Positions 1,738-38,446 of a DNA stretch of 64,000 nucleotides are shown one piece after another. Numbering within the stretch: the first letter of the stretch is position 1; every line of letters begins with the position of its first letter. The notes beneath the pieces were generated by a model. That model was not told where the DNA came from, searched no databases, and worked only from the letters and a program-made list of their open reading frames with translations. A program made the position numbers and the translations under genes. The DNA is from an uncultured bacterium (GTDB lineage Bacteria > Zhuqueibacterota > QNDG01 > DSAB01). The stretch spans positions 4,465 to 68,464 of the forward strand of contig CAZIAH010000005.1 in NCBI GenBank assembly GCA_964537715.1, written 5' to 3'.

Positions 1738-1764
1738 TGATATTTTCTCTAAAATATTTTCATT

Positions 1765-8512: not shown

Positions 8513-8570
8513 ATTTTTATCCATTTTATTTGAGACTACGTATGAGTGCAATTTCAAAGTATACTTATAT

Positions 8571-8617
8571 CGAAGTGGTTTTGAGATTTTGTCATAATAA
8601 ATCTCAAAACCACTTCG
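8571..8617 (-). terminator. Large perfect hairpin (18-bp stem) between the GH78 gene and the next gene; terminator or attenuator
   Basis: cgaagtggttttgagatt (8571-8588), 11-nt loop, aatctcaaaaccacttcg (8600-8617). 23 nt after the GH78 stop. The downstream tract is A/U-rich but not a clean U-run. Confidence 0.4.
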
Positions 8618-8640
8618 GAAGGAGTAAATGATGAAACGAT

Positions 8641-21310: not shown

Positions 21311-24214
21311 TTAATTCAATTCTCCAAAATAAAAATACAATGTCCGTTCATAAGTACTGTCAATCGTATTCTTTTTACTTGTTGGCCCCATCTGTTCGGG
21401 ATGCATATTGATACGTGTTGCCATCTGTGTACAGGTTGGCGGAATAAAATCGAGAAACGAAATATCGCCTGGTGGCAAAGATGGATAAGATTCTTTCCCA
21501 CGTAGTGAATAAAATTCAAATAATCGAACGAATAAATCATCCTGTTTGCTGGCAATATAGATTCTACCTTCAACTGTGTTCAACTCCATCCAGGCAACAT
21601 CTGAAAAGTAACCCTTAAATTCCGGGTACTTCCACGGCGATGTGCCGGTGAAGGTATTATTGTATGCGTCCTCCCACACATTAAGAGTCACACCTTGCAT
21701 CCTGTTTTTCCAGACACGGTATGGACCATTACCGAGCCATTTGGCGCTCAACACAAACTCCTCAGGATAATTAAAGCTGACACCGCTAAAATTGTATTGC
21801 CCATGCAATTCATACGAATAGGTCATTTCCAGCCAGCCGCTTGGGAACAGCTCCCAGCGCACCGTTTTCATACCACCTTCATACGCCGTTTCAACCACAT
21901 AGCCACCTTTTTCCCGGTGATGTTTCAATCCTGTAAAAGTTGAATTTCCTGTGCAAAAAACCGGACCGTTATTGAAATGAATTTCACGGTCTTTTTCACT
22001 AATATTAATTTTAATGTGCGTTAATAAGCCGTTTAGTTTACTTAAAGTAAGAAACTTACTACCTACGGTTAACACAAGCGATGTATCGTTCTCATCGATG
22101 TCGATTGAATTTTCATCTTCTCTTTTCACAATGGATTTTATTAACGATTCGTTGTTTTGAATCTTCCAGGACCATGTGTAAATATCCTGTCCGGTTGGAT
22201 CGACAGCCTTCAATAGCAAAGCTTCTGCATTTTGCCAGTCATCCGGTAAGGAAAAATTTAAATGACCACTGGTGTGCGGTTTTATATCTACTCCATTAAC
22301 CGATCCTTCGTTGATCAGGTTATAGCCCTTCCGCGTCTCTTCCGGTTTGGGGAACTCTACTAATTTCCAGTTAAACGAGCACTGGTTGAGATTGATAAAA
22401 TCGAACCGGTTTTCCACAGGAATATTTCCGTCAAATGAATCCGGCAATTCATTCATTTCGATGTGAACAGGAGAAAAAATCTGCTTTATCGCATTGAAGC
22501 TGCCTTCCTTTTCACGATGTGGACCCAAAATGCCATCCGGGGCATTGACACCATTCACATCGATGATGCCGCCAAGATCGGTTCGGACAACGCCTTCATC
22601 TAATAACGCCCAAATAAATCCACCACCTGATTTCGCCGCTTTCCACATCAGTTCCCAGTAATCATACAACCCTGCGCCGCCACCCCCATCAAACTGGCTG
22701 TGCTGGAATTCCGTTGGCATATAAATATTCTCTTGCTTAAAAAGCCATTGCATGCCGCTGTACTTTTCATAATGATTGGTGTCAATATGATTAAAAGCAT
22801 ATCCCGGTTTAAAATGCGGATGAATCACTGTTCTGTTTGAAGGATCATATCTTAAGAAATCGTCATCCAACTCTTTATTGGTTCCCCCTTCATTGCCATT
22901 GCTCCAGAAAATCACCGAAGGATGATTCACATCGCGGATAACCATTTCACGAACCAATATTTCTCCAATCGCTGTATCATAAGCATTGTGCCAGCCAGCT
23001 AATTCATCAATTACATACAATCCAAGCGAATCGCAATAATCTAGAAAACTCTGATCCGGTGGATAATGTGAGCAACGCACGGCATTCATATTCATTTCTT
23101 TGATAAGCTTTACATCCATCAAATCGATGCCTTTGTTGAGACAACGTCCTGTTTCCGGCCAAAAGGCATGACGGTTGATGCCTTTCATTTTGACTTTAAC
23201 CCCATTAATATAGATACCATCTTCCGGCCGGACCTCTATCATCCGAAAACCAAATTTTTCCTTTGTTTGATAAAGAATATGTTCACTGTCTTTTAAATAA
23301 ATATCAGCCTTATATAAAGTTGGTGATTCACTACTCCACAGATATGGATCATTTAATTTTGTTCTTAGGGTTACTTTAGAATTGCCTTTGCCTGTCTTTA
23401 CAGAAATGGATTTTACAATCTTGTTCTCAGGCTCAATAATTTCTGCAATGATCTCTCTTTCATCCTGCACGTTTTGGGGAAAAACATCTATACTAAACGA
23501 ACCATCTGCTTTGGCCACGATAGCCGTTCGCTCAATGTGTTCCCTGGGATAGGCTTCTAAGTACACCGGACGAAAAATCCCACCGAAAATCCAATAATCT
23601 GCATAGCGTTCAGAGCGGTTCACGGATTCGTTGGATGACATCTTACTCACCATAACTTCAAGCTGATTGGACTTATCAAAATAAAGCGCATCGGTTATGT
23701 TATAAGTGAACCTGTAAAAAGCGCCCTGGTGCACATCGCCCGCAGATTGGCCATTAATTTTAACTTCCGTATCCGTCATAGAGCCTTCAAATACAATAAA
23801 TATCTCTTTGCCGCGCCATGATTCAGGAACGGAAAATGTGTGTTTATAAAGTCCTTCTTCATTCGCATATTTGAATTGCGGGCCATACGTATAATAATCT
23901 CGACCATAATTGTAACTGCCAAAACCCTGTTGTTCCCAATGAGACGGAACTTCAATTTTTGTCCAGTAACCGCTCTTGCGCCCGCCGGTACAGAAAAAAT
24001 CCCAGGTAACAGTTCTCTCATTATCGATTCCTGAAAGGTATTGAATCTGCTTTTCAGACGATGGTTTTGAAAAGATACTGACAGGGTATAAAGCGCAAGT
24101 AAGAATCAGAGTGAAAAAATAATTGATTAAAACCTTAATATTGTATTTACCTTTCTTGAAATCATTTCCAACCAAATCAAAAGCTCTAAGTAAAATAAAC
24201 TCTGACAAGGGCAT
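21311..24214 (-). CDS. GH2 beta-galactosidase-type glycoside hydrolase, secreted; start codon uncertain
   Basis: 967 aa. GH2 motifs GINRHAFWPETGRCL, VIFWSNGNEG and ELAGWH. Hydrophobic signal-like segment only after residue ~25 (NIKVLINYFFTLILTCALYPVSIFS). The annotated ATG (24212-24214) lies inside the loop of an upstream terminator hairpin. A TTG at about 24175 is an alternative start. Confidence 0.8.
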   Translation of the reverse strand: MPLSEFILLRAFDLVGNDFKKGKYNIKVLINYFFTLILTCALYPVSIFSKPSSEKQIQYLSGIDNERTVTWDFFCTGGRKSGYWTKIEVPSHWEQQGFGSYNYGRDYYTYGPQFKYANEEGLYKHTFSVPESWRGKEIFIVFEGSMTDTEVKINGQSAGDVHQGAFYRFTYNITDALYFDKSNQLEVMVSKMSSNESVNRSERYADYWIFGGIFRPVYLEAYPREHIERTAIVAKADGSFSIDVFPQNVQDEREIIAEIIEPENKIVKSISVKTGKGNSKVTLRTKLNDPYLWSSESPTLYKADIYLKDSEHILYQTKEKFGFRMIEVRPEDGIYINGVKVKMKGINRHAFWPETGRCLNKGIDLMDVKLIKEMNMNAVRCSHYPPDQSFLDYCDSLGLYVIDELAGWHNAYDTAIGEILVREMVIRDVNHPSVIFWSNGNEGGTNKELDDDFLRYDPSNRTVIHPHFKPGYAFNHIDTNHYEKYSGMQWLFKQENIYMPTEFQHSQFDGGGGAGLYDYWELMWKAAKSGGGFIWALLDEGVVRTDLGGIIDVNGVNAPDGILGPHREKEGSFNAIKQIFSPVHIEMNELPDSFDGNIPVENRFDFINLNQCSFNWKLVEFPKPEETRKGYNLINEGSVNGVDIKPHTSGHLNFSLPDDWQNAEALLLKAVDPTGQDIYTWSWKIQNNESLIKSIVKREDENSIDIDENDTSLVLTVGSKFLTLSKLNGLLTHIKINISEKDREIHFNNGPVFCTGNSTFTGLKHHREKGGYVVETAYEGGMKTVRWELFPSGWLEMTYSYELHGQYNFSGVSFNYPEEFVLSAKWLGNGPYRVWKNRMQGVTLNVWEDAYNNTFTGTSPWKYPEFKGYFSDVAWMELNTVEGRIYIASKQDDLFVRLFEFYSLRGKESYPSLPPGDISFLDFIPPTCTQMATRINMHPEQMGPTSKKNTIDSTYERTLYFYFGELN

Positions 24215-24230
24215 GAAACCCTTGTCAGAG
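24186..24230 (-). terminator. Rho-independent terminator downstream of the duplicated-domain T9SS protein gene
   Basis: Perfect 12-bp stem CTCTGACAAGGG / CCCTTGTCAGAG (24200-24211 and 24219-24230) with 7-nt loop. On the minus strand it is followed by UUUAUUUUACUU. 13 nt after the stop at 24243. Confidence 0.7.
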
Positions 24231-24242
24231 TTGTTGTCTTCC

Positions 24243-26558
24243 TTATTTCAGCAACATCATCTTCTTAACTTTAACGAAGTCACCAGATTCAATGCGGTAA
24301 AAATAGATACCAGATGAAAATGATGCAGCTTTGAATGAAACAGTGTAGACACCGGCAGCCTTTTCCTGATCTACTAATGTAGTAACAACTTGACCTAACG
24401 CATTATAGATCTTTAATGTTGTCTTGCCTGCTTTCGGTAAGCTATACTTAATAATGGTCTCCGGGTTAAACGGATTTGGATAGTTTTGCTCAAGAGCATA
24501 AACTGTCGGGATTGTACTGTTAGCTTCAGCAACCGAAGTCGGTTCTTCAACTTTCCCAAGCTCAGCCATACGGGCAACTTCATTGAAGAAGACTTGCTGG
24601 GCATCATCAGAGAAGTTATCGTAATTGAATGGGCCTGCTGCCGTTTCATAAAAATGGTCATTACCGTTTCCAATTAAAGTACGGTAGCCAGCAGCATAGT
24701 CACCCGCGCCATCGTAAAACTCTGTCCACGGATCCCAACGTACAAAGAACACATTGGAGTTGCTGGCAGAGCGCGCTAATACTGTGCCGTTACCGCCATC
24801 TGTGGTCACAATATAATCGTATGGAGTAGAACACCAATCCATCGTACTATCCGCTGCAAGAGTGGCACCGGCGAATACAGCATCATCCGGGGTTTCTATT
24901 TTGGCGCTAACGGTTTCACCAGCAACATCGTACGTAGTGATCGAGGTTGATTGTAGCCAGTTTAATCTGTTGCTGCGAGCAGCCCATGGCGTCATCAGCA
25001 CTAAAGGAGAAGTGATGGCGTTCCATGTCGGTTTTTTTGATGCATCAAAGTTTCCGCTAAGAGGTGAACGTGCGACGATAACCAAATCAGCAGCATTCAA
25101 AGTATCAATCAGGCCCTGGGAAGCTTGGCTAAGATCTGCGCTGAATACTGTGCTAACAGCATATCCCTGTGCTTCTAATCCATCAATTAAATATTGGTCA
25201 GCGTGTTCTTGTATATCAGGATTCATCTTGGCGGGATCGCTGAAAAGAACAATTTCTTTGTCCAAACCTACCGGTTTTTCAACTTTTCCAAGCTCAGCCA
25301 TACGGGCAACTTCATTGAAGAAGACTTGCTGGGCATCATCAGAGAAGTTATCGTAATTGAATGGGCCTGCTGCCGTTTCATAAAAATGGTCATTACCGTT
25401 TCCAATTAAAGTACGGTAGCCAGCAGCATAGTCACCCGCGCCATCGTAAAACTCTGTCCACGGATCCCAACGTACAAAGAACACATTGGAGTTGCTGGCA
25501 GAGCGCGCTAATACTGTGCCGTTACCGCCATCTGTGGTCACAATATAATCGTATGGAGTAGAACACCAATCCATCGTACTATCCGCTGCAAGAGTGGCAC
25601 CGGCGAATACAGCATCATCCGGGGTTTCTATTTTGGCGCTAACGGTTTCACCAGCAACATCGTACGTAGTGATCGAGGTTGATTGTAGCCAGTTTAATCT
25701 GTTGCTGCGAGCAGCCCATGGCGTCATCAGCACTAAAGGAGAAGTGATGGCGTTCCATGTCGGTTTTTTTGATGCATCAAAGTTTCCGCTAAGAGGTGAA
25801 CGTGCGACGATAACCAAATCAGCAGCATTCAAAGTATCAATCAGGCCCTGGGAAGCTTGGCTAAGATCTGCGCTGAATACTGTGCTAACAGCATATCCCT
25901 GTGCTTCTAATCCATCAATTAAATATTGGTCAGCGTGTTCTTGTATATCAGGATTCATCTTGGCGGGATCGCTGACAAGAACGATTTCTTTAGGATTCCA
26001 ATCAGTACTAGGATTAAAAGTATCGCTGGTTGTTACAATGATATGATCTATGGCAGCCCCTCTTTCTCTGAGATAAATTGTCAATGTATGAGCTCCTGCA
26101 GTAGGAATATTAAAGGAAGTAGGTCCCTTTACCCATTCCCATACTCCGTAACTTCCATGTGGAATCATATCGTTTTGACTAGCAATACTATCACCTAGGC
26201 CATAGTAGAATGAGTCATTCTGTCCATCAATAAAATACTTGCGGACCCAGATGTAGTGTGCGCCGGTTTTCGTGAAGTTTATATTATAAGATAAAGCAGG
26301 CGCATCAGTCTCAGCCGTTGTATTTGGATTATAAACTCCAGCATCCGTACCTTGCATATAGCTTGAACCTAAAAATCCTGCAAAAGTGGTTGAATCAGCA
26401 AAAGTATCACCCTTGGATCCATCGCGCAGCGAATCATAGTCTTCAGCCGGCATTGTGACTAAACCAAGAAAATCAGATTTCTGGGTGAAGTCGGCGTATG
26501 CGCTGCTAAAACAAAGCAGCACTAATGATAACAGAATGAAAGATAACTTATCTCGCAT
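24243..26558 (-). CDS. T9SS-secreted protein: N-terminal beta-sandwich (CBM-like) domain, two near-identical 244-aa alpha/beta repeat domains, T9SS CTD; no recognisable catalytic domain
   Basis: ORF track start is GTG 26636. Preferred ATG at 26558 is preceded by AAGGAGGAGGAA and gives signal peptide MRDKLSFILLSLVLLCFSSAYA. Internal 732-bp tandem duplication (see the repeat feature). C-terminal LEQNYPNPFNPETIIKYSL...LLK. Confidence 0.6.
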   Translation of the reverse strand: MRDKLSFILLSLVLLCFSSAYADFTQKSDFLGLVTMPAEDYDSLRDGSKGDTFADSTTFAGFLGSSYMQGTDAGVYNPNTTAETDAPALSYNINFTKTGAHYIWVRKYFIDGQNDSFYYGLGDSIASQNDMIPHGSYGVWEWVKGPTSFNIPTAGAHTLTIYLRERGAAIDHIIVTTSDTFNPSTDWNPKEIVLVSDPAKMNPDIQEHADQYLIDGLEAQGYAVSTVFSADLSQASQGLIDTLNAADLVIVARSPLSGNFDASKKPTWNAITSPLVLMTPWAARSNRLNWLQSTSITTYDVAGETVSAKIETPDDAVFAGATLAADSTMDWCSTPYDYIVTTDGGNGTVLARSASNSNVFFVRWDPWTEFYDGAGDYAAGYRTLIGNGNDHFYETAAGPFNYDNFSDDAQQVFFNEVARMAELGKVEKPVGLDKEIVLFSDPAKMNPDIQEHADQYLIDGLEAQGYAVSTVFSADLSQASQGLIDTLNAADLVIVARSPLSGNFDASKKPTWNAITSPLVLMTPWAARSNRLNWLQSTSITTYDVAGETVSAKIETPDDAVFAGATLAADSTMDWCSTPYDYIVTTDGGNGTVLARSASNSNVFFVRWDPWTEFYDGAGDYAAGYRTLIGNGNDHFYETAAGPFNYDNFSDDAQQVFFNEVARMAELGKVEEPTSVAEANSTIPTVYALEQNYPNPFNPETIIKYSLPKAGKTTLKIYNALGQVVTTLVDQEKAAGVYTVSFKAASFSSGIYFYRIESGDFVKVKKMMLLK
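24538..26001 (-). repeat. In-frame tandem duplication, two copies of 732 bp (244 aa), inside CDS 24243..26558
   Basis: Copy A about 24538-25269, copy B about 25270-26001. The copies are identical except about 5 substitutions clustered at the copy boundaries. Plus-strand antisense ORFs are duplicated with an offset of exactly 732 (24629/25361 and 24862/25594). Confidence 0.9.
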
Positions 26559-26758
26559 TTCCTCCTCCTTCATTTTGTTGTACGAGTTAATGTGATTCAT
26601 GACCTTTACTTCCTGAATTGTTATAAGAAATCTCACCTCCTTTCTTCAATAAATTTTTGATGAAAATATTAAAGCAAATGATAGATTTAAAAATAAATAT
26701 ATATTTGCCTTCACCGATAATCATACACCTGGCATATATTAATTATGGATGTACGAAC

Positions 26759-28456
26759 TTACTTTAAAAGTAGCATCTTCTTTTGAATCCAATAAGATCC
26801 TGATGAGTTTAAAATTTTTAAACGATAAAAATAAATTCCCGATGAAACTTGCTCCCCTGAATCATTTCTGCTGTCCCATTGTACTCTGAATTCACCTTCA
26901 TTCTGGTATTGTTGAGCAAGAGTCTTTACTTTTTGACCAGCACAGTTATAAACATTTAAAGTTACATGAGCAGGTTTATCCAGAGCATAACGAATTGTAG
27001 TTGTCGGATTGAATGGATTCGGATAATTCTGAAATAAGCTCATATTATCAGGCACGATTTTATTTTTATCCTCAACGGCTGTAGTGTTCTCAACTTCAAA
27101 TGCTCCAAGATCGGGTGCATTATTAAGAAAGGGGAATCCAATATCCACACCGGCGTCAATAATGGCACTTCCGGGAGCCGGACGTAAAAAATCAATGTCA
27201 GGTAAACTGCCATTCTCTTTGCGGGGCGACGTTAATAAATCCATATCAAGACTTATAAAATCGTCATCTGATAGAGTGATTGGCAAATCAAATGAATTGT
27301 ATTCCGAAGTATTTTGGGCGGTATCGATATACGCTGTATGCTTATATCCTATTACCTTCTGATAACTTAGGTTGTTTTTAAGCACATGATCATAGCCATC
27401 ACCGTCAATATTATCTGCATCGTCACGGCTTGGACGGTTTAACATATTAAAATTGGTTACATTCAGATAGGCTGAATTGTTGAACCAGTCATTTCCTGCT
27501 AAATGATGGTTAGAATAGAATCCATTAGCTTTATTCTTCACGGCAACACAAAACCTGACAGTATTTCTTGGAACCGGATCAGGGATTTTATCTGCTGTAT
27601 CATGCGCATATCCGCCTGCTTTAAAACCGTTTCCATCTCCCAGACTTTGAAAGTTTGATGAATATCCGTTATAAAAAGCCCAGCAACTGTCAAAAACAAC
27701 GGATTCATCGGCGCGGATAATATCAAAGCCGTCATCACTGTTAAACCAGGCGCGGCAGCCTCTAAAAACATTACCGGCGCCACCAGCATCGGGATGACAG
27801 CCAAAACCATCACAATTGCTGCCCAATCCATCTTCCGAAACATTATCCCAATTTCGATACGAATCACAATTTAAAAACAAATTGCCGCCACCTTTATAGT
27901 GACGCAGCCCGGTGCCAACATTGTTGTGCATGCTGATCTGTTCATATATATTATTATTCCCCCGGCTGTAAATACAATAAGACTCGGTGTGTGTTGTAAT
28001 GGTTACCTGAATGCCGGTCATTTCCAGCCCTTTAAGGTGAATATAACTTCCGGCCATCCAGATACCTACCACACGTTGATCGGCCGGCTTAACAGCGGAA
28101 AAATCAAAAACAGGCTGCTCACCCGGATATGCCCAGTACTTTATAGTTTGTCCGGCCAGGCCGCTTTTATCCAGATAACTAATACAGGCAAATAAATTCT
28201 GTTGAACGCTGGATATCTGGTTTTCCCGAACATTGTATAATCCGCCACGAATGTAAACTGTGTCACCTGGATTAACGAAGGTCTGAGCTTGTTGAATGGA
28301 TTCGACAGGTTGATCGATTGTTCCCGGATTTGAATCGTCTCCATCCGGCGCCACAAAATATTGAGATGCGAAAGAAAGATTTAGAATTGCCAAGATAAAT
28401 ATGGTGATTAAAATCAATCTCATAATTTCCCCATTTTTTTCAACTGGTTTTTTCAT
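26759..28456 (-). CDS. Right-handed beta-helix pectate-lyase-like protein (PL9-like candidate) with T9SS CTD
   Basis: 565 aa. Signal peptide. N-terminal YFVAPDGDDSNPGTIDQPVESIQQAQTFVNPGDTVYIRGGLY cap typical of PL9/pectate-lyase-fold proteins. Asn/Gly-rich coil repeats. C-terminal LFQNYPNPFNPTTTIRYAL tail. ATGA overlap with the downstream gene. An alternative ATG at 28423 is possible. Confidence 0.55.
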   Translation of the reverse strand: MKKPVEKNGEIMRLILITIFILAILNLSFASQYFVAPDGDDSNPGTIDQPVESIQQAQTFVNPGDTVYIRGGLYNVRENQISSVQQNLFACISYLDKSGLAGQTIKYWAYPGEQPVFDFSAVKPADQRVVGIWMAGSYIHLKGLEMTGIQVTITTHTESYCIYSRGNNNIYEQISMHNNVGTGLRHYKGGGNLFLNCDSYRNWDNVSEDGLGSNCDGFGCHPDAGGAGNVFRGCRAWFNSDDGFDIIRADESVVFDSCWAFYNGYSSNFQSLGDGNGFKAGGYAHDTADKIPDPVPRNTVRFCVAVKNKANGFYSNHHLAGNDWFNNSAYLNVTNFNMLNRPSRDDADNIDGDGYDHVLKNNLSYQKVIGYKHTAYIDTAQNTSEYNSFDLPITLSDDDFISLDMDLLTSPRKENGSLPDIDFLRPAPGSAIIDAGVDIGFPFLNNAPDLGAFEVENTTAVEDKNKIVPDNMSLFQNYPNPFNPTTTIRYALDKPAHVTLNVYNCAGQKVKTLAQQYQNEGEFRVQWDSRNDSGEQVSSGIYFYRLKILNSSGSYWIQKKMLLLK

Positions 28457-29184
28457 TTCAGTTCGTACACTTTAAAATGTTCCACTTCCTGATGCGATTT
28501 CACCGTTCGAAAGCCAAAATAACCTTCAGTTAAGGGCTCGTTATCCTTAAAAGAAAAATACGGCTCACTATCCACAAAAACCTGAGTCGTTCCATTGTAA
28601 ACCACAATTTGAATCAAATAATTTCTATTGGGTTGAAGCAGGTGCTGCTCATCTTGTAAATCAAATAAAAGCGAGCGTTCACCGGTTCCCTGATATTTCC
28701 GGAAACGAGTGGTGCTATTACTGTTGCCGCCAATACCGGCATAATAAAGCCGCAGAGAATCATATTGTGAAAATATTCCGTTTCGTGTAAACACATTTTC
28801 CTGTCGAGGATCGATTGCCATCCAAAATTGATTGAGATCGGACAAACGATCGTTTTTTCCATTGTTCATGACCACTTTTCGATGGTACTCAATCATGATG
28901 TTCCCTGACAGCTTTTTATTAAACCAGACAGTGGCGCCGTTATCGACATCAATGACCAGCTTGCCTTTCTCAATCCCCACTTTTGAGTTGGGTGAGTTCG
29001 GCGTCTCAACTATCCAATTATTCATATCCTGTTCAAAATTATCATTATAAAGTAGCTGGACTTTTTTATACTGCTCAACAGAACCTGAATCAGCAACGTT
29101 TTGGGCCTGTATTGTGTTCTGAAATCCACATGTAAACAAAAAGCACAATAAAATCAATAAAATAGTGAAATCAATTTGTCTCAA
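28453..29184 (-). CDS. Small secreted beta-sandwich (ConA-like lectin/glucanase-fold) protein, possibly DUF1961/YesU-like
   Basis: 243 aa. TTG start at 29184 with strong SD TTAAGGAGGT 5 nt upstream. Signal peptide MRQIDFTILLILLCFLFTCG. Mostly beta composition. Family call is from weak recollection only. Confidence 0.35.
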   Translation of the reverse strand: MRQIDFTILLILLCFLFTCGFQNTIQAQNVADSGSVEQYKKVQLLYNDNFEQDMNNWIVETPNSPNSKVGIEKGKLVIDVDNGATVWFNKKLSGNIMIEYHRKVVMNNGKNDRLSDLNQFWMAIDPRQENVFTRNGIFSQYDSLRLYYAGIGGNSNSTTRFRKYQGTGERSLLFDLQDEQHLLQPNRNYLIQIVVYNGTTQVFVDSEPYFSFKDNEPLTEGYFGFRTVKSHQEVEHFKVYELK

Positions 29185-29199
29185 GGATACCTCCTTAAT

Positions 29200-30540
29200 C
29201 TATTCGATTGTCACCTTAACTTTTGCCGAAAGTTGTTGCACCAAATTTGTGATATAGTCTTTGAAAAAATCAGCGTCTTTAAAACGTTCATCGCTCAATT
29301 CCCATCCCGCCGCTGCATAGTAGGTAACAGGTTTATCATTTTCAACTTTCAACCTGGCCAAGTATGTATTGCTCAATGGCCCCTGTTTCGGCGCCTCCGT
29401 ATAACCAAGATACAGATCACTTGGTACAATCAGCGCCATTCCAAGCCACCATTGACGGTTATAAGTCTGCATATCATGAGTCAACAAGACCTGCCATTGA
29501 TCATTAACGGAGATGACCTGCAGCGGATTTTGGTTATTGCTGTTCACCAGGCCGACGATCAGTTCTTCATCGCCCTGCAATCCAGAAAACTGTACTGTAT
29601 TTTGATAGGCATACATACCCGGCCAGATGCTGGTGGTTTCATCTACCTGGTAGTTTCGTCCTTCATCCGGTTGCCAGTTTTCATAATGATAGCTTAAAAC
29701 CGATTTCACAGGACCTTCCGCCATAATGCGGAATGTGGTTTTCTCAACATTGTTGATCGAATCATCAACCGTTACACCCAGACGCAGCAATTGGTCACTG
29801 GTTTTCAAACCATAACCCCCAAGTCCCACAGAGTTGCCGACCGACAGGATATCGCGCCCCCAATCCGCCATGACATGATAGTTATCTTCGACGGCACCCT
29901 GTTCATTTATCCCAACATTTTCTGGTGACATAAATGAAGCCGTTTTCCCAAACAAATCGTTGGCATTGCGACCATCCAGATAATGGCGGAAACCAATTTT
30001 ATCATTTTCCCATGAAGGGCCATCGGTCTGGTAGCGCTGGAAACCGATACTCTTTGGCAAATCCCCAGCATATAAAGTCTCGCTGACCGCAGGTTCTACC
30101 GGGGTATCAGTAGAACTGCGCTTTCCAAAACGGGCGCTGGTACGCACGATATATTTGGGCTCTTTATTTACCCACAGTAAAAAATATGTTTCCGTTGTAT
30201 TTGCAGGCAAATTGACTACAAAAAATAATTCATCCCATTTTTTATCTCCATTAAGATCATTCAATTGAGAAGCAACCGTATCGCCCTTATCAGAGATAAT
30301 CAACGGGTAATGGGTACCTGCCCCAGGACTTTCAATTTGTGAGCGGTCAATAGATATGGCCTTATCAGTCAGGACAATCGCAAAGTTGTTTGCAAGAGTC
30401 ATCTTTGTCTTTCCAGGCACAGGCTGACATTGGTTAAGAAGAAAGATTGAAATCAACACAGCACTTGTGGTTAATGCAAAATGATTTTTTATTTTGCCTA
30501 ATGTTGCCCCTTTATTTGGGTGTTTTAAATTATTCTTCAT
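29200..30540 (-). CDS. Lipoprotein of unknown function (possibly DUF4861-like)
   Basis: ORF 29200..30597. ATG at 30540 gives MKNNLKHP...ISIFLLNQC (lipobox). It overlaps the upstream gene stop by 11 nt. No catalytic motifs recognised. Confidence 0.35.
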   Translation of the reverse strand: MKNNLKHPNKGATLGKIKNHFALTTSAVLISIFLLNQCQPVPGKTKMTLANNFAIVLTDKAISIDRSQIESPGAGTHYPLIISDKGDTVASQLNDLNGDKKWDELFFVVNLPANTTETYFLLWVNKEPKYIVRTSARFGKRSSTDTPVEPAVSETLYAGDLPKSIGFQRYQTDGPSWENDKIGFRHYLDGRNANDLFGKTASFMSPENVGINEQGAVEDNYHVMADWGRDILSVGNSVGLGGYGLKTSDQLLRLGVTVDDSINNVEKTTFRIMAEGPVKSVLSYHYENWQPDEGRNYQVDETTSIWPGMYAYQNTVQFSGLQGDEELIVGLVNSNNQNPLQVISVNDQWQVLLTHDMQTYNRQWWLGMALIVPSDLYLGYTEAPKQGPLSNTYLARLKVENDKPVTYYAAAGWELSDERFKDADFFKDYITNLVQQLSAKVKVTIE

Positions 30541-33292
30541 CTTGTATCCTTGGGTTATCTTCAGGAAGTTGGTCGCCGATAAAATCCAGCAATTCAATAG
30601 CGTTCAGACACCATTGTGCAGTGTTATTGGTGGAAACTCCCTTCACCTCATACACCGGCTGCAGGCTTTGAACTCCGTCAAATAGCTGCATAGTGAAATC
30701 AGTATAATAATATCTGTCTCCGGTATTAAAAAACTCATCCCAGGCTCTTTCTGCATAGGTTTTGTCCCCCGTCATTTTCGCATAATAGGCCGGAAGACGG
30801 GCATACCATGGGCCAGGTTTCCCCAACTCAACCGCTATACCGAATTCTTTTTCAATTTCATTTTCAGGTGCGGCATATAATCTACAGAACTGCATCCAAA
30901 GTTTGTCCCATTTTTTATCCTGAAGAAGATGGGTCAATTCAAAAGCAACTTCAGGACCTCCCATCAAAACAGATAAATGTAGATAGCCGATATCATTTTC
31001 ATCCAGTTGATGCAATTTGTAGGTTTCCGGATCGTATCCAAAGGCCGCTCGCTTGCCGGAATAGAAACCATAGGGCATGTCATACAAACTGTTCACTCCG
31101 GCCATGATTCGGTCACGATACATTGTATTCCCTGTGCGTTCCCATTCAGTCATCCAGTTGCCAACCAAGGCCAGCCAGTCAGGGCCAACGCGGGCGTGGG
31201 TTGGGTATTTGCTTTTTTCCAATATCAAACGAAGCGGATCAATTTTGCCAATTGCTTCGTTGGAAGCATCCACAGTCGCACGCATCAAATCGCCTGTTCG
31301 TTCATCCGTGGTGAGATAATAATAAAATCGACCTAAAGCTGCCTGCGAAATACGCACCTCTTTGGCGCCGCAGCCCCAATGAATCACGTTGTGACGGGAA
31401 CCCAATCCCTTAAACCGTCCCAAATGATAGACATCGACTTCGCCCGTGTGACGCATCATCGCCTCTGCCATGCGGAAAATATCTTCACGTCCAGATCTCA
31501 GATAACTGTACCACAACCACAGGTTGGGCATCAATTCGGTATTGTCCCAGGCATAGCCTCCCATATCGTATTTCCAGGTGTGCCGGTCATGATCGTAACT
31601 ATGCCTTATGTCACCATAATTCCAGAAGCCATACCAATGCCTCTGCTCCACTTCCAACTGATAGTATTTAATCGCATTGTCAAGCTGATCCTCTATCCAG
31701 CGCTTTCCTTTTGTACTTCGGTCAGGTAAACTCCACACGCCGAAAACAGGAATGCTGTGGATATATTCCGAAGAGACAATAAGTAAAGGTGGTTGATTCC
31801 CCAGGTGTACAATTTTATTCAAGGTTCCATAAGACGGTACTTCGGGTGATGCATACAGCAGAATTTCGCTTGTGCGAGCTACCCCGGTGGCTGTGCTGAA
31901 TCCCGGTTGAACATCTTCATAACTGGCCTGGAGTGTGTGGCCCCAGGCAAGTGTGTCGTAATGACGCATGTCCATGGCCTCGGCCTCAGGAGACCAGAGC
32001 CAGGCCATCAGTTGGGCCTCATCATCTTTAACATTGCGAATTTCCAACGCTGATGGAAAGGATTGCCAAAAATCACGAACACAAACCGTCAATCCGCCGG
32101 ACACATCCCCGACAAAAGCCATTCCTTCGGAACGTTTGCCATAGCCGGCGTCAATCCAGGCGCTTTCATTGTTGGTTCTTTTTTGCACCCGAAATCCATC
32201 GGCATTCAATTGTTCCAGCCTGAAATCATTCCAGCTTGCCCAGTGCTCAAACAGGAATTGTACTTTTTCAGGGAAACTATCAGGTTCGGCAATCCGTTCG
32301 CCTGTAAGCTGTTTGGCGTAAAAGTTTTCACGGGTTTCAAAATTAAAGAGCGGGAAACTGCCGTTGAGCGGCTGGCATGGTTCATCCCACAATCCTCCGT
32401 TTACTCCCGAAAAACGAATATGCCGGTTATATAACTGTTCATCCAACGGCACGTTAAAAACCAGCCCCAGACCACGGATAAAATCTTTTTGTTGATCCCC
32501 ATCGTAAACAATGGTATTTACCATACGAATCGATTGCAGTCCGGCATAAAAATACAACCGGACAATAAATGGCAACCAGCTTCGGTTGGTTGAGTCCGAC
32601 ACGTGCCTGCCTTCAATTTTAACCACTGCCCTGACCGGACCACTCTGCTCGATGGTTACTCTTTCGACTATACCTGTGAACTTTTCTTTGGATGGCTGAA
32701 CACCGAATTCCTGATCCGGTCCATTCTGAAGAATACAAATCAGTTTTCCATCGGAAGAAATTACTTTTCCATTCATTTTTATAGAACGAATTAAGAGTCT
32801 GCCAATTTTTGGAATTTCGCATTGCATAATACCGGTACTAATCAGTAAAGCATCATTGGATTCAGATAATTCGACCTTTGTTTTTGGCAGATTAGCGCCG
32901 GACTTTTTTACATGTTCCAGTACGAAAGCAGTTCCGGCATTGGAATCGACTACAGCGCTTAGGCCTACCCATTTTAGGGAACCATCCGGCCAATATGCCA
33001 AAGGCCAGGATTGCACAGGCAAAGCCTCTCCCTGTTCATTTTTCAATATATAACTGCTCGATGGATCAATCTCCCCTTCCGGCAGCGGCACACCCCAACT
33101 TACTCCTGCTGAAATCGACGGGGCCTTTCCTCCAAGCCATGATAGTTTAATCGGGTCGACTTCCCGGGCAAATAGCGTATCCTGATCAATACCAACAATG
33201 ATTAATAACCAGCAAAATAGAATTAGCCAAATTCTTTGCTTACATCGATAATGATGTTGTAAGGTTATCAAATTATTTCTTATGAATTGCAT
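30530..33292 (-). CDS. Large secreted protein of unknown family (candidate polysaccharide lyase/hydrolase with alpha-helical toroid-like C-region)
   Basis: 920 aa. Signal peptide IWLILFCWLLIIVGIDQDTLFA. Trp/Tyr-rich helical segments (HWYGFWNYGDIRHSYDHDRHTWKYDMGGYAWDN, NLWLWYSYLRSG). No family recognised. Confidence 0.4.
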   Translation of the reverse strand: MQFIRNNLITLQHHYRCKQRIWLILFCWLLIIVGIDQDTLFAREVDPIKLSWLGGKAPSISAGVSWGVPLPEGEIDPSSSYILKNEQGEALPVQSWPLAYWPDGSLKWVGLSAVVDSNAGTAFVLEHVKKSGANLPKTKVELSESNDALLISTGIMQCEIPKIGRLLIRSIKMNGKVISSDGKLICILQNGPDQEFGVQPSKEKFTGIVERVTIEQSGPVRAVVKIEGRHVSDSTNRSWLPFIVRLYFYAGLQSIRMVNTIVYDGDQQKDFIRGLGLVFNVPLDEQLYNRHIRFSGVNGGLWDEPCQPLNGSFPLFNFETRENFYAKQLTGERIAEPDSFPEKVQFLFEHWASWNDFRLEQLNADGFRVQKRTNNESAWIDAGYGKRSEGMAFVGDVSGGLTVCVRDFWQSFPSALEIRNVKDDEAQLMAWLWSPEAEAMDMRHYDTLAWGHTLQASYEDVQPGFSTATGVARTSEILLYASPEVPSYGTLNKIVHLGNQPPLLIVSSEYIHSIPVFGVWSLPDRSTKGKRWIEDQLDNAIKYYQLEVEQRHWYGFWNYGDIRHSYDHDRHTWKYDMGGYAWDNTELMPNLWLWYSYLRSGREDIFRMAEAMMRHTGEVDVYHLGRFKGLGSRHNVIHWGCGAKEVRISQAALGRFYYYLTTDERTGDLMRATVDASNEAIGKIDPLRLILEKSKYPTHARVGPDWLALVGNWMTEWERTGNTMYRDRIMAGVNSLYDMPYGFYSGKRAAFGYDPETYKLHQLDENDIGYLHLSVLMGGPEVAFELTHLLQDKKWDKLWMQFCRLYAAPENEIEKEFGIAVELGKPGPWYARLPAYYAKMTGDKTYAERAWDEFFNTGDRYYYTDFTMQLFDGVQSLQPVYEVKGVSTNNTAQWCLNAIELLDFIGDQLPEDNPRIQDEE

Positions 33293-34958: not shown

Positions 34959-36359
34959 TTATGCTGACTTGATTTTAGATTTTTGAATCATCATGCTTAC
35001 AACTAAGTATACAATTGATGCCACAAACCACCCCGGAAGACCAAGGAAAAATATTTCGATACCCAAGGATCTATTAAGATAAACACTAAAACCAAGTGTT
35101 AACACCCAGGCCAGCGCAGCGGCAACATTAAAACTCTTATTAAATATTTCCGCATAATTGGATTTTAATCCCATTTTGGGAATGATATAAACATCCATGA
35201 GAATGACCGCTCCCATCGGCATCAGGATCAATCCATACAGAGCCACAAATTCCAATAACTTCATAACCAATGCCGGGAAAAGGGCTGCTGTGGTTGTTAT
35301 TGCTCCAACAACGGCCGTTACACGCCATGTTTGCCAGGATGGTTTGATGGCTTGCAAAGCCAAACCGGCCCGGTAAATTGTTGGATTAGCCGTTGTCCAT
35401 CCGGCGATGACCACACACAAGGCTCCAGCGATACCAGCCGCACGAAAAGCAACAGGACCAGGGGCAAATTGAGTACTGCCTGCAGATTCCAGAAGGAAAA
35501 GCGAATATAAAATTCCGGACGCCAGCCATGCGATATAATGCCCCAAATACATACCTGTTGCCGAAGAGAGACCATAATACCATTTTTTGGCATAACGCAA
35601 AATAGAGAGATCGGCCATACCTATGTGCATCGCCATATTGACAAACCAGGCGAAAAAGAGCACATGCCAAAAAGTGAATTTACTCTGACCAGCAAGCGGT
35701 GTACCTGTCCAAATGGTATCATTTGCTTTTGTCCAAAAATCTGACAGAGAGTGAACGCCCAAATCCGGCAAAACAGCAACAGCTGCTGCTACAAATACCA
35801 TTATCATCCAGGGAGCGGCTATATTTGCAACCCTTGAGATTTGAGTATAACCAAACATGGCAACAAGTGTGGTCACAATTCCTACAGCGAGAACAGTAAC
35901 AACCCAGCTTACGCTATTTGGATAGAAATCATTTAATGAAGGCATTGCCATATGAAAAGGAATACCAACTGCTGTTGCCGACACGGCAATCATTGAACCG
36001 GCAAGAAAACAAAACATAAGCGCATTTACTATGTTATAAATTGATGTAACTTTTTTTCCGCCGATTTTTTCAAGTAAATAATAAAGAGTCAATCTTTTTT
36101 GGGTAGCAACCGGACCGGTAATAAAAGCCCAGCTTAAAACAGCTAACAGATTTCCCAGTAACAGACCTAAAATTAAATCACCTGCTGCAACGCCATGTGC
36201 TACGAACAGTGGTCCAATAACAAATTCTGTCCCAGCCGTATGTTCGCCTGCGTACATTCCGATAAAACTTCCCCAACCTTTCCGGCTTTTTTCCGGAACC
36301 GGGATTCGCTCAAATTCCTCAACAGAATCCAACTGCCCTTTAATTGATTTTTTTGCCAT
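34959..36359 (-). CDS. NCS1-family permease (cytosine/purine/uracil/thiamine/allantoin permease family)
   Basis: 466 aa. 12 TM segments. N-terminal PEKSRKGWGSFIGMYAGE...LLGNLLAVLSW aligns with the CodB-type P..SRKG...LIGNLLL block. SD GAGGAGAAAAGT before the ATG. Confidence 0.65.
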   Translation of the reverse strand: MAKKSIKGQLDSVEEFERIPVPEKSRKGWGSFIGMYAGEHTAGTEFVIGPLFVAHGVAAGDLILGLLLGNLLAVLSWAFITGPVATQKRLTLYYLLEKIGGKKVTSIYNIVNALMFCFLAGSMIAVSATAVGIPFHMAMPSLNDFYPNSVSWVVTVLAVGIVTTLVAMFGYTQISRVANIAAPWMIMVFVAAAVAVLPDLGVHSLSDFWTKANDTIWTGTPLAGQSKFTFWHVLFFAWFVNMAMHIGMADLSILRYAKKWYYGLSSATGMYLGHYIAWLASGILYSLFLLESAGSTQFAPGPVAFRAAGIAGALCVVIAGWTTANPTIYRAGLALQAIKPSWQTWRVTAVVGAITTTAALFPALVMKLLEFVALYGLILMPMGAVILMDVYIIPKMGLKSNYAEIFNKSFNVAAALAWVLTLGFSVYLNRSLGIEIFFLGLPGWFVASIVYLVVSMMIQKSKIKSA

Positions 36360-36401: not shown

Positions 36402-37040
36402 TCAATAAATAATTAAATGTTGTTCTTTAGGGCCATGCATACCAAGGATTAATTCCATGGAAATGTCCGCTGTACGACTTGGGCCCGAAATAACAATCGT
36501 ATTACTCGGGTTTGTAAATTTTTCTATACCTTTACAACGACAATCTTCAATCCAGCTTTCAAAGTCAGCGAAAATCTGCCCTTTTTTGATCAGGGCAATA
36601 TGAACTTCCGGCAACAAAGAAGCTGTACGTTGGCGACCTTTCCCGGAACGAAGTACGATACTACCGGTTGCTGCCAAAGCTGCACTGACACCTGTTATGC
36701 CAAACCGGATACTTTCTTGTTGTGTAATTTCGATTCCATTGTCTTCTAAAGACTGGTAAAGATTTTTAATCGGCAAATTTTCTGAACTCCAGCAATTGAC
36801 CTGCTGGTCGTTGCCAATAATTTTAAAAAGTGTTTTTTGTGCATCCTTTTCATTGGTGCAGATCGTTACCTGGGCAGAGAGTTTTTCTGCTTCTGATTTA
36901 AAATATTCCAAAAGTGATGCGGGATCCTTCTTGTCCAGTTTAACCATTGGTAAATAGTTTTCAACCCGGCTTTTCTCTGGAAAGGGAACCGCAATATTTT
37001 TGAGCTTATTTAAAATATCATCCCGACTGTTACTCATCAT
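36402..37040 (-). CDS. lutC: LutC-like lactate utilisation protein C (LUD/YkgG domain)
   Basis: 212 aa. ATGA overlap with the LutB stop. Size, composition and position are typical of LutC. Confidence 0.65.
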   Translation of the reverse strand: MMSNSRDDILNKLKNIAVPFPEKSRVENYLPMVKLDKKDPASLLEYFKSEAEKLSAQVTICTNEKDAQKTLFKIIGNDQQVNCWSSENLPIKNLYQSLEDNGIEITQQESIRFGITGVSAALAATGSIVLRSGKGRQRTASLLPEVHIALIKKGQIFADFESWIEDCRCKGIEKFTNPSNTIVISGPSRTADISMELILGMHGPKEQHLIIY

Positions 37041-38446
37041 TATTTGCTCCCATCTTTTAATCCATTTTTCCAGAGTTCATAAAAACTTTTAGCAGCAGGT
37101 TTCGGTACTTTGCGGTAACGGGTCCATTTTTTTACTAAACCAGGCATCTTATTTAGGGGAAGCAGGCGTGATACTTTCATCATTATTCCTGTCAAGCCAT
37201 ACAACTTTTCTGACTGATTCGATTTGGCCCAAATCCACATACCGGCTTTCCAGATTTTGGAGCTTTTTTTCTGCTTCGTCAAATCATGACGCAGATCCAG
37301 CAGCATGTGTGGGATATCAATATCGACAGAACAGACCTGTTTACAACTTCCACATAAGGAACTTGCATTGGGCAACTGCGAGGCTTTGTTCAATCCAACC
37401 AGTAAAGGTGTCACCACAGCACCGATGGGTCCGGGATAAACCCAGCCATAGGAATGGCCGCCACTGACACGGTAAACCGGGCAGGCATTCAAACAGGCGC
37501 CACAACGGATGCAGGCCAATGCCTCGGTGTAGCCACTCCTATAAATATCAGACCTGCCGTTATCGATTATGATAACATAGACTTCAAGTGGGCCATCTTC
37601 TTCATCACTGCGGCGTGGTCCGTTTATGATATTGGTATAAACCGTCATCGATTGACCGGTTGCGTTGCGCGGTAGTATTTGGGCCAGAGTCGCATAATCT
37701 TCCAGCGTAGGAATGATTTTTTCAATACCAACAACGGCAATATGTATCGGCGGCAGAGATGTAACCATCCGACCGTTCCCCTCGTTGGTGGCCAAGCAAA
37801 GGGAGCCGCTTTCGGCAATTATAAAGTTACCGCCACTGATCCCCACATCCGCCTGCAGGAACTCTTTGCGCATATGACCACGCACAAAATGTGTCATAGT
37901 CTGGGTATCGTCGGTAGGGGGCATGCCGATTTTCTCCACCAGCGTATCACGGATGCTTGCTTTTGTGCGGTGAATCACCGGCACAACAATATGACTGGGA
38001 TGATCACCGCTTATCTGGATAATATATTCACCCAGATCGCTTTCAACCACCTGTACATCGTTCTTTTCGAGAAAGTCGTTCAGTGCGATTTCTTCAGTGA
38101 CCATACTTTTGCTTTTAATCACTTTTTTAGCCTGTTTCTGCCGAATGATCTCCAGAACTTTACTGTTTGCTTCAGCAGCATCTTTCGCCCATAAAACATT
38201 AATGCCGTTTTTTTGCATTTGTTTTTCAGCCTGTTCTAAAAGCTGTGGCAGGTTATTTAAAGCATTCCGTTTAATTTGAGCGGCTTGCTGGCGTATTTTT
38301 TCGCCATGATCCTGCCCGGAAATAAACACAGCGGATTTCCTATTGGTATAGGCGAGATTCGTTCCAAAGCTGATCGCAGATTGCAGATCAGCATCGGCAA
38401 TGGCTTTTCGTGCTTCCTTCGTAAAATTTTCAGACTTGATTTTCAT
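37040..38446 (-). CDS. lutB: LutB-like iron-sulfur lactate utilisation protein (4Fe-4S ferredoxin domain, YkgF family)
   Basis: 468 aa. CIRCGACLNACPVYRVSGGHSYGWVYPGPIGAVVTPLL 4Fe-4S cluster motif typical of LutB/YkgF. Confidence 0.85.
   Translation of the reverse strand: MKIKSENFTKEARKAIADADLQSAISFGTNLAYTNRKSAVFISGQDHGEKIRQQAAQIKRNALNNLPQLLEQAEKQMQKNGINVLWAKDAAEANSKVLEIIRQKQAKKVIKSKSMVTEEIALNDFLEKNDVQVVESDLGEYIIQISGDHPSHIVVPVIHRTKASIRDTLVEKIGMPPTDDTQTMTHFVRGHMRKEFLQADVGISGGNFIIAESGSLCLATNEGNGRMVTSLPPIHIAVVGIEKIIPTLEDYATLAQILPRNATGQSMTVYTNIINGPRRSDEEDGPLEVYVIIIDNGRSDIYRSGYTEALACIRCGACLNACPVYRVSGGHSYGWVYPGPIGAVVTPLLVGLNKASQLPNASSLCGSCKQVCSVDIDIPHMLLDLRHDLTKQKKSSKIWKAGMWIWAKSNQSEKLYGLTGIMMKVSRLLPLNKMPGLVKKWTRYRKVPKPAAKSFYELWKNGLKDGSK

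Follow-up and report, generated by a model that had tools for sequence, protein, structure and literature searches.

What do three adjacent genes of uncertain function contribute to the pectin locus that surrounds them? The genes lie at positions 28453 to 33292 of the window, by which we mean the whole 64,000-nucleotide stretch that was analyzed, and an earlier note on this DNA had called their products three proteins of unknown function. We found that all three ORFs are real, co-directional on the minus strand, and tightly packed in the core of a rhamnogalacturonan-I (RG-I) and rhamnose utilization locus of roughly 60 kb. As had been proposed, the products appear to be secreted or periplasmic. 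In this locus, about 30 genes for CAZymes and catabolic proteins run in one direction, among them those for LacI, TBDR, CE12-like, GH2, GH115, PL11 with a T9SS tail, RhaA/B/D, LutABC, GH105, PL9 with a T9SS tail, GH112, two GH28, GH78, and GH106 proteins.

The flanking genes are a GH105 gene upstream and a PL9 gene downstream, both of which had been recognized from the sequence. The first (33472 to 34767, minus strand) encodes a GH105-type unsaturated rhamnogalacturonyl hydrolase (Pfam Glyco_hydro_88, E 2.9e-76), and GH105 genes recur beside all three families of the block in related loci. The second (26759 to 28456, minus strand) encodes a Pel9A/PelN-like beta-helix lyase (Pfam Pel9A-like_beta_helix, E 2e-89) with a T9SS C-terminal sorting domain (Por_Secre_tail); against NCBIfam PelN it scores 360 bits, which is under the model cut-off. 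Translational coupling had been claimed for the whole block on the basis of two overlaps. We confirmed that the start of the middle gene overlaps the stop of the first by 11 nt. The ATGA overlap, in contrast, joins the stop of the third gene to the start of PL9 (ATG at 28456), so that it is PL9 that is translationally coupled to the third gene. Direct reading of the sequence showed that the middle and third genes are separated by a 15-nt spacer (29185 to 29199, minus strand). This spacer contains the Shine-Dalgarno sequence AAGGAGG (29196 to 29190), which is separated by 5 nt from the TTG that starts the third gene, as the note had read it. The resulting 243-aa product and its N terminus were seen again in homologues, and the order of this gene followed by PL9 was also found in L001 and L002.

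The first gene of the block (30530 to 33292, minus strand, ATG start) encodes a protein of 920 aa. We found that it matches three Pfam domains, PcRGLX_1st (E 1.8e-25), PcRGLX_2nd (E 9.4e-126), and PcRGLX_3rd (E 1.6e-164), which span residues 47 to 909 and score far over their gathering thresholds. A phmmer search against the PDB aligned residues 50 to 911 with residues 10 to 903 of PcRGLX chain 5xq3_A (E 5.1e-179, 600 bits). On these alignments, we are highly confident that the protein is a full-length PL26 family member. The earlier guess of a PL26-like enzyme was therefore correct, and the label of unknown function does not hold for this protein. It adds one more ordinary sequence to a CAZy family in which a member has already been solved and characterized, and it does not found a new one. 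Its description as a helical protein fits residues 501 to 909, which form an alpha/alpha toroid, but not the N-terminal ~500 residues, which form a RIFT barrel and a beta-sandwich. PL26 enzymes remove unsaturated GalA-Rha from RG-I oligosaccharides by exolytic beta-elimination (EC 4.2.2.24) (PMC13501991). Since its N terminus has a hydrophobic, signal-like segment and a T9SS tail is missing, the 920-aa protein is probably periplasmic.

The third gene (28453 to 29184, minus strand) encodes a signal peptide and a domain that matches Pfam DUF6250 (PF19763) over the entire model (positions 1 to 165 of 165, E 1e-67, 227.5 bits with the cut-off at 26.9). We used an AF2 model of the protein (pLDDT 87.7) in a Foldseek search. 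The top match was Bacillus subtilis YesU (PDB 1oq1; E 5e-13, TMq 0.70, TMt 0.76, rmsd 2.8 Å over ~232 columns). It leads the next group, CBM66 and the L-type lectins, by about three orders of magnitude. GH16 enzymes and the DUF1080-type 3-keto-2-hydroxy-glucal hydratase 8tda were also matched. We found no jelly-roll polysaccharide lyase among the top 50 structural matches. The predicted structure is a ConA-like/galectin fold superposable on 1oq1, which agrees with the ConA-like jelly-roll proposed from the sequence. Mean column identity is 57% across phyla, and the invariant residues are R113, R134, R160, R162, R226, Y147, Y148, Y164, D112, D116, and N118. The core of this set is retained in divergent multidomain members too, and R160-x-R162-x-Y164 forms an alternating pattern on a single strand.

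DUF6250 is encoded in 410 GTDB species genomes among those scanned. Among the best 80 loci and L001, PL26 lies within 10 kb of DUF6250 in 45, usually immediately upstream. The two form a single ORF in at least 14 loci (at least 13 of the best 80 genome loci, and L001), and in one such fusion (P0123) the PL26 part is 87% identical to the 920-aa protein. Fusions of DUF6250 to PL11, CE12, and PL26 were confirmed by Pfam. Almost a third of the best 50%-identity cluster representatives (47 of 150) are multidomain, with partners that include PL4, PL9, PL11, GDSL and alpha/beta esterases, GH78, and GH29. DUF6250 is thus a discrete module appended to diverse catalytic modules at either terminus, as CBMs are, and this pattern suggests a carbohydrate-binding module. 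We somewhat favor the view that DUF6250 binds carbohydrate, and its specificity is probably for RG-I.

The middle gene (29200 to 30540, minus strand) encodes a 446-aa protein that matches Pfam DUF4861 (PF16153; E 2e-95, 320 bits with the cut-off at 22.3, positions 2 to 380 of the 380 in the model). The longest version of the ORF starts at 30597; the product from the ATG at 30540 is an exact match to an entry of NCBI source in the public protein collection. A nearly invariant Cys38 behind a hydrophobic N-terminal segment identifies it as a putative lipoprotein, in agreement with the earlier note. With the NCBIfam equivalog BT_3233_fam (NF058564), whose cut-off is 320 bits, the protein reached only 85.4 bits, and the match is partial: it covers model positions 94 to 354 and residues 190 to 462 of the 465-residue ORF scanned. 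Judged by these scores, the protein belongs to a DUF4861 subfamily other than that of BT3233.

The AF2 model of the DUF4861 protein (pLDDT 78.8) has an N-terminal Ig-like sandwich and what may be a galactose-mutarotase-like supersandwich. Foldseek returned no close solved structure for it. The best matches were GH38 C-terminal domains (TMq at most 0.47); accessory domains of the mutarotase type in GH38 and GH65 enzymes gave TMq values of 0.40 to 0.47 with the conserved core modeled at low confidence, and true aldose epimerases reached only E ~0.03 to 0.06. This core, residues 160 to 245, is densely packed with invariant polar residues and is the region in which the model has its lowest confidence. 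H222, E178, D173, and D230 are among the invariant residues, and identity between KSB1/Ignavibacteria and Bacteroidota members is about 57 to 60%. In 17 loci DUF4861 is placed next to PL26 and DUF6250 or between them, and in other genomes the neighbors that accompany it most constantly are PL26 and the GH105/GH88 hydrolases. Of seven loci that were chosen independently, three have DUF4861 immediately beside a GH88/GH105 gene; in another two it comes directly after PL26, and a GH88/GH105 gene lies three genes upstream. Bacteroides thetaiotaomicron needs BT3233 to grow on three glycosaminoglycans, which are likewise degraded by way of lyases and GH88. We tentatively suggest that DUF4861 may act at the GH105/GH88 step.

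Other functions are conceivable for both of these proteins. DUF6250 could be a small catalytic domain that works as a lyase, hydratase, or tautomerase on RG-I fragments that contain uronate or are unsaturated, and this would make the fusions bifunctional. Its conservation is unusually high for a CBM, and the invariant Arg/Tyr/Asp/Asn constellation, with two arginines and a tyrosine spaced along one strand and its core kept in multidomain relatives, would fit an enzyme too. The catalytic ConA-fold proteins among the Foldseek matches (GH16 and 8tda) are consistent with this, as is the fact that YesU is a cytoplasmic, stand-alone protein. However, DUF6250 is joined, at one terminus or the other, to no fewer than eight unrelated catalytic families, which is classical behavior for a CBM and rare for a catalytic domain. 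In addition, the closest structures after YesU are CBM66 and lectins, jelly-roll lyases are absent from the top 50, and for YesU itself lectin activity has been measured and no catalysis is known. We consider a catalytic DUF6250 unlikely and retain the binding module as the preferred reading. A noncatalytic role has in turn to be considered for DUF4861, which could be an SGBP-like glycan-binding lipoprotein, at the surface or in the periplasm, that captures unsaturated RG oligosaccharides for PL26 and GH105. The lipoprotein cysteine, N-terminal Ig-like domain, and large beta-sandwich have the layout of such a protein. No catalytic domain was detected in it, its structural matches are accessory beta-sandwich domains of GH38, GH65, and PL enzymes, and in L082 and L087 its gene stands directly behind SusC/SusD-type genes. 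On the other hand, SGBPs are usually far less conserved than this family is across phyla, and the dense invariant polar core speaks against such a role. The BT3233 phenotype on three chemically different glycosaminoglycans also points to a shared downstream intermediate rather than to recognition of a particular polymer. A purely binding DUF4861 therefore seems to us doubtful.

It could also be that the three genes are merely co-regulated within a large pectin locus and coupled only by their substrate. The size of the co-directional locus would allow this, gene order differs among genomes, and many PL26-DUF6250 loci are without DUF4861. Against this stand the PL26::DUF6250 fusions and the PL26-DUF4861-DUF6250 order, which we found again in KSB1, Ignavibacteria, and Bacteroidota. 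Furthermore, in L083 and L086 a DUF1961 (YesU-family) gene takes the place of DUF6250 beside PL26-DUF4861, and this substitution at the same position argues for selection of the combination. We regard an incidental juxtaposition as very improbable. The note had named absence from other pectin loci as grounds for rejecting its proposal; the block is conserved in such loci across phyla, and the proposal survives. Its suggestion of new or poorly described families holds in part, for DUF4861 and DUF6250, the only two still functionally undescribed. It does not hold for PL26, and the DUF6250 fusions favor a binding module over a new catalytic CAZyme.

Taking the observed family memberships, folds, fusions, and gene neighborhoods together, we infer a compartment, ligands, and activities for the three proteins, and we lean toward a model in which the block is a periplasmic "finishing" module of the RG-I utilization locus. 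According to this model, the T9SS-exported endolyases PL11 and PL9 would cleave extracellular RG-I, and the oligosaccharides would enter through a TonB-dependent receptor. The 920-aa PL26 exolyase would then take unsaturated GalA-Rha disaccharides off these by beta-elimination, and the adjacent GH105 would convert the disaccharide to rhamnose and unsaturated uronate. DUF6250 would serve as a YesU-like lectin-fold CBM that recognizes either the backbone of RG-I or its unsaturated ends, acting in trans here and in cis in the many relatives in which it is fused to PL26 and other RG-I enzymes. In the weakest step of the model, the DUF4861 lipoprotein would be a membrane-anchored partner of the unsaturated-uronyl hydrolase reaction. 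It might bind the unsaturated oligosaccharide or uronate, or it might accelerate the opening of the ring, or the interconversion of anomers, once the 4,5-unsaturated uronate is released. The assignments of DUF6250 and DUF4861 are thus offered as testable leads.

Several characterized systems resemble parts of the block. The exo-rhamnogalacturonan lyase PcRGLX of Penicillium chrysogenum (PDB 5xq3, 5xqg, and 5xqj) has the same three-domain architecture and association with RG-I as the 920-aa protein and aligns with it end to end; in the toroid domain the two sequences are identical over long stretches. PcRGLX is fungal and secreted, whereas its counterpart here comes from a diderm bacterium and is probably periplasmic. 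Close relatives of the 920-aa protein carry an extra C-terminal DUF6250, for which the PcRGLX chains (906 to 908 residues) leave no room. BT3233 shares its Pfam family with the DUF4861 protein, and both are tied to pathways that pair lyases with GH88/GH105 unsaturated-uronyl hydrolases. The BT3233 phenotype concerns glycosaminoglycans, whereas the context here is pectin, and since the DUF4861 protein scores far under the BT3233 cut-off, that phenotype may not transfer.

The levan-binding module of B. subtilis SacC (CBM66, PDB 4b1m) and other ConA-fold CBMs and lectins have a beta-sandwich fold like that of DUF6250. DUF6250 also resembles CBMs in being appended to many catalytic families. Identity to this group is 12 to 13%, TMq is about 0.5, and the context of CBM66 is fructan rather than RG-I. 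YesU (Pfam DUF1961) is only about 17% identical to the DUF6250 protein of the window, and the DUF1961 HMM (PF09224) did not match the 243-aa protein even at E ≤10. An hhalign comparison of DUF6250 (A1) with one DUF1961 protein was weak (21% probability); that same protein has a sub-threshold DUF6250 match (E 1e-3). YesU is cytoplasmic and stands alone without a signal peptide, whereas DUF6250 proteins are secreted and often fused. The missing signal peptide and stand-alone state of YesU are odd for a polysaccharide-binding module. YesU binds glycans in vitro, as seen by glycan array and SPR, and the only ligands measured are fucosylated mammalian glycans, not RG-I. The two families nevertheless have motifs in common, and lectin-like YesU is encoded in the yes RG-I cluster; like DUF6250, it is found in an RG-I locus beside CE12, PL, or GH105 genes.

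On its sequence, we assign the 920-aa protein (30530..33292, minus strand, ATG start) to PL26 as an ordinary new member of the family. Pfam matched it to PcRGLX_1st (E 1.8e-25), PcRGLX_2nd (E 9.4e-126), and PcRGLX_3rd (E 1.6e-164), and its residues 50-911 align with the crystal-structure sequence of the P. chrysogenum exo-rhamnogalacturonan lyase (E 5e-179). An earlier note had guessed that the protein was PL26-like, which is correct, and had listed it as of unknown function, which is not; its description of the protein as helical fits the C-terminal toroid but not the remainder. The interpretation in that note is partly supported. We found a hydrophobic signal-like segment at the N terminus and no T9SS sorting domain, unlike in PL11, PL9, and the second GH105. 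Together, these features suggest that the protein is periplasmic. To our knowledge, the sole characterized member of PL26 is fungal. For the annotation of pectin loci, a bacterial PL26 that is periplasmic and has defined partners would serve as a useful point of comparison. The two smaller proteins of the trio belong to existing, uncharacterized Pfam families, DUF4861 for the 446-aa protein (E 2e-95) and DUF6250 for the 243-aa protein (E 1e-67).

The whole gene set of the region lies on the minus strand, and we found all three ORFs as originally described. The longest ORF of the DUF4861 gene spans 29200..30597 (minus strand); when translation begins with the ATG at 30540, the product has 446 aa and is identical to an NCBI-sourced entry in a public protein collection. 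As had been claimed, there is an 11-nt overlap between this start and the stop of the 920-aa gene. The DUF6250 gene (28453..29184, minus strand) has the proposed TTG start, preceded by AAGGAGG at 29196..29190 with a 5-nt spacer, and the resulting N terminus is also found in homologues. The reported ATGA overlap exists, but it joins the 243-aa gene to PL9 (ATG at 28456) and not two genes of the trio; the DUF4861 and DUF6250 genes are set apart by a 15-nt spacer. Plus-strand ORFs in the block (29176..29697, 31007..31336, and others) were set aside as antisense within strongly supported minus-strand genes. In a promoter scan, promoter-like matches were no more frequent than in shuffled controls. 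Terminator-like matches numbered 19, versus 11.4 +/- 3.6 in shuffled controls, and the sole convincing terminator-like hairpin of the neighborhood lies well downstream of the block at 24232..24198. Clear Shine-Dalgarno sequences stand 5' of internal genes at 29190..29196 and 30545..30549 (minus strand). Such initiation is generally missing in Bacteroidota. Shine-Dalgarno-led internal genes together with T9SS sorting domains fit a non-Bacteroidota FCB member (KSB1, Calditrichota, or Ignavibacteria-like).

We defined the locus content by Pfam scans of all ORFs of at least 150 aa in the window and found one long co-directional locus for rhamnogalacturonan-I (RG-I) and rhamnose use. It encodes a LacI regulator, a TonB-dependent receptor, and a GDSL/CE12-like esterase; several GH2 proteins, GH115, and PL11 with a T9SS tail; rhamnulokinase, class II aldolase, LutABC, and rhamnose isomerase; GH105, the trio, and then PL9 with a T9SS tail; a GH112 phosphorylase and an MFS_2 transporter; and two GH28 proteins, GH78, GH106, and a second GH105 with a T9SS tail. 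Among related genomic loci, the nearest comes from a MAG of candidate division KSB1 (L002); its genes stand in the same order, and its third protein is 83% identical. The GH112 phosphorylase (19109..21292, minus strand; TIGR02336, 797 bits) adjoins the MFS_2 transporter (17616..19088, minus strand). Their presence in an RG-I locus suggests cytoplasmic phosphorolysis of a Gal-Rha-type galactosyl disaccharide stub rather than lacto-N-biose use.

Other genes of the locus also drew our attention. LutABC-type lactate utilization genes (36402..39209, minus strand) and an FAD-linked oxidase gene (60349..61779, minus strand) lie amid the rhamnose catabolic genes, consistent with lactaldehyde and lactate derived from rhamnose being handled by this one locus. 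Directly upstream of GH105-PL26 is a gene for a 466-aa polytopic membrane protein (34959..36359, minus strand), which had no Pfam or NCBIfam match and is syntenic in the KSB1 loci L002 and L016; we consider this protein a candidate transporter for rhamnose or for unsaturated uronate or disaccharide. A 797-aa T9SS-tailed protein (24243..26636, minus strand) contains a tandem duplication with a period of 732 nt. The two reported 300-nt stretches are 99% identical, the repeated protein segments look identical in translation, and the repeated unit matched no convincing Pfam family. A domain that duplicated very recently could account for this, as could an assembly artifact.

The 446-aa protein scored 85 bits against the NCBIfam equivalog model for BT3233, the DUF4861 protein of B. 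thetaiotaomicron. This is below the 320-bit cut-off and places it in a different DUF4861 subfamily. An almost invariant Cys38 follows the hydrophobic N terminus, which supports predicted lipidation. In the AlphaFold2 model (pLDDT 78.8), the N-terminal sandwich is Ig-like and is joined to a large beta-supersandwich. The structures that it matches best, though weakly, are mutarotase-like accessory domains found in GH38 and GH65 enzymes (TMq <=0.47); matches to aldose epimerases and to the sandwich domains of PL26, PL33, and PL17 are weaker still. Searches of the PDB with the sequence and the profile gave chance-level matches only. Residues 160-245 hold the densest invariant polar block and are the least confident part of the model.

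BT3233 is important for growth of B. thetaiotaomicron on chondroitin sulfate, hyaluronan, and heparin (PMC8121099); we found nothing in the DUF4861 literature beyond this fitness screen by Liu et al. In 17 of the loci gathered here, a member of the window protein's DUF4861 subfamily is encoded between PL26 and DUF6250 or next to them. When seven loci were chosen irrespective of DUF6250, DUF4861 directly adjoined a GH88/GH105-type hydrolase in three and directly followed PL26, with GH88/GH105 three genes upstream, in two more. In one SusC/SusD locus (L082), a 598-aa protein with no Pfam match (8170..9966) is encoded between a metallophosphatase and DUF4861-GH105. Pectin and glycosaminoglycan pathways both use a lyase and then an unsaturated-uronyl hydrolase, and we therefore place DUF4861 at that step. 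The pairing with GH105/GH88 and PL26 narrows the search for an activity to the unsaturated-uronate step that is common to both. There, DUF4861 might bind unsaturated oligosaccharides, or it might act as a mutarotase-like catalyst on the unsaturated uronate once this is released; of all the steps in our model, we regard this one as the least secure.

The third protein is highly conserved. A homologue search gave 1,199 proteins. Over KSB1, Ignavibacteria, Bacteroidota, and Oxalobacteraceae, the mean column identity is 57%, and Arg, Tyr, Asp, and Asn residues form an invariant set to which the motifs NDRLSDLNxFWM and TTRFRKY belong. The AlphaFold2 model is a beta-sandwich (pLDDT 87.7). We ran the Foldseek comparison that the earlier note had proposed and found that the best PDB match is 1oq1, the B. 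subtilis DUF1961 protein YesU (E 5e-13, TM 0.70/0.76), clearly above CBM66, L-type lectins, GH16, and DUF1080-type proteins. A jelly-roll lyase, suggested by a loose resemblance of YYAGIGGN to the PL7 motif YFKAGVYNQ, was rejected: there is no invariant His, and no PL7, PL14, or PL18 structure was among the top 50 Foldseek matches. The JGI label "rhamnogalacturonan endolyase" on some DUF6250 proteins is probably an annotation transfer, perhaps from fused proteins, since a PL11::DUF6250 fusion exists; we did not count it toward an activity.

At the sequence level, single-sequence and profile searches with DUF6250 against the PDB gave chance-level matches only, and the window protein did not score as a DUF1961 member. 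Alignment of the DUF6250 profile to one DUF1961 protein with hhalign gave 21% probability over 57 columns, by itself too weak for a claim of homology. Two large genomes have the order GH105-DUF1961-PL26-DUF4861 (DUF1961 at 6297..7085 in L083 and 4307..5098 in L086); their DUF1961 proteins have a signal peptide and take the place that DUF6250 has in the window lineage. The L083 protein matches DUF6250 below threshold and shares with it the motifs W..K.[FL]SG...IEY and R.R[RK]Y. The case for homology rests on the fold, the shared motifs, and the subthreshold Pfam cross-match. With the equivalent locus position added, we concluded that DUF6250 branches divergently within a YesU-like superfamily tied to RG-I in Firmicutes and Gram-negative phyla.

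Conservation of the block in other pectin loci, the absence of which would have counted against the earlier note, was seen across phyla. DUF6250 is present in 410 genomes in a scan of one genome per GTDB species. When L001 is added to the best 80 loci, 45 of the set have PL26 no more than 10 kb from DUF6250, in most cases immediately upstream. A single PL26::DUF6250 ORF is encoded by at least 13 of the best 80 loci and, in addition, by L001; one of the 80 has a CE12::DUF6250 fusion and one a PL11::DUF6250 fusion, both verified by Pfam. The L001 protein (P0123, 1136 aa; 1059..4469, GCA_016294925.1) shares a 90%-identity cluster with the window PL26, and its PL26 part is 87% identical. It is followed by PL9, with no DUF4861 gene. 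At the DNA junction, the DUF4861 start-codon region is joined to the mature DUF6250 N terminus, which implies precise loss or gain of the DUF4861 gene: this gene and the DUF6250 signal peptide were either deleted in L001 or inserted in the window. An exhaustive search of 1.8 billion cluster representatives gave 641 DUF6250 clusters. Multidomain proteins make up 47 of the best 150; they carry the module at one end or the other, and their partners include PL4, PL9, PL11, other lyase families, GDSL and alpha/beta-hydrolase esterases, GH78, and GH29.

A small domain that folds independently and turns up on a range of unrelated catalytic families, all directed at a single polysaccharide, is the signature of a carbohydrate-binding module (CBM). 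Given the spread of DUF6250 fusions over unrelated RG-I catalytic families, our preferred reading is that DUF6250 is a module that binds the RG-I backbone or unsaturated ends, in trans in the window. We keep alive the rival that it is catalytic rather than binding, for which its very high conservation speaks, as does the fact that YesU is cytoplasmic and stand-alone; the fusion spread weighs on the side of binding. By fusion pattern and the YesU link, the candidacy of DUF6250 as a new CBM family that targets RG-I is strong; this, if true, would explain YesU as well.

In the pathway that we propose around the observed family assignments, folds, fusions, and synteny, the compartments, ligands, and activities would be as follows. 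T9SS-exported PL11 and PL9 would fragment RG-I outside the cell, and a TonB-dependent receptor would import the oligosaccharides. PL26, helped by the DUF6250 module, would peel off unsaturated GalA-Rha, which GH105, with DUF4861, would convert to rhamnose and keto-uronate; the rhamnose catabolic genes of the locus would act next. A broader joint reading, which we regard as tentative and on balance doubtful, is that DUF6250 and YesU/DUF1961 form an unrecognized RG-I-specific CBM superfamily, acting in cis (PL26, PL11, PL4, PL9, CE12, GH78) or in trans, and that DUF4861 is a new mutarotase-like periplasmic enzyme acting on the 4,5-unsaturated uronate released by GH105/GH88. If true, its first part would assign a function to YesU, a gene so far unexplained in the RG-I cluster of Bacillus, and its second would add a step common to pectin and glycosaminoglycan catabolism.

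The locus itself is unsurprising; the leads are concrete and testable. What we add is the YesU link and the wide DUF6250 fusion repertoire, which point to a candidate new RG-I CBM family, together with the substitution of DUF1961 for DUF6250 and the association of DUF4861 with GH105/GH88. Our literature search found nothing on the function of DUF6250 or DUF1961. YesU, termed uncharacterized in a 2018 study, shows glycan binding in vitro, and in B. subtilis its gene neighbors a DUF624 gene and the gene for RhgT, a CE12 esterase (PMC6120924). Betaproteobacterial loci share the order GH106-GH28-GH105-...-CE12-DUF6250. In one group, from Undibacterium and other Burkholderiales (Oxalobacteraceae; L040, L043, L047, L048, L052, L054, and L059), a second GH105 follows; in another, from Pseudoduganella and Massilia (L051, L053, L058, L063, and L071), PL26 or PL11 lies on the opposite strand a few kilobases downstream. 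This CE12-DUF6250 adjacency echoes the RhgT-YesU pair of B. subtilis.
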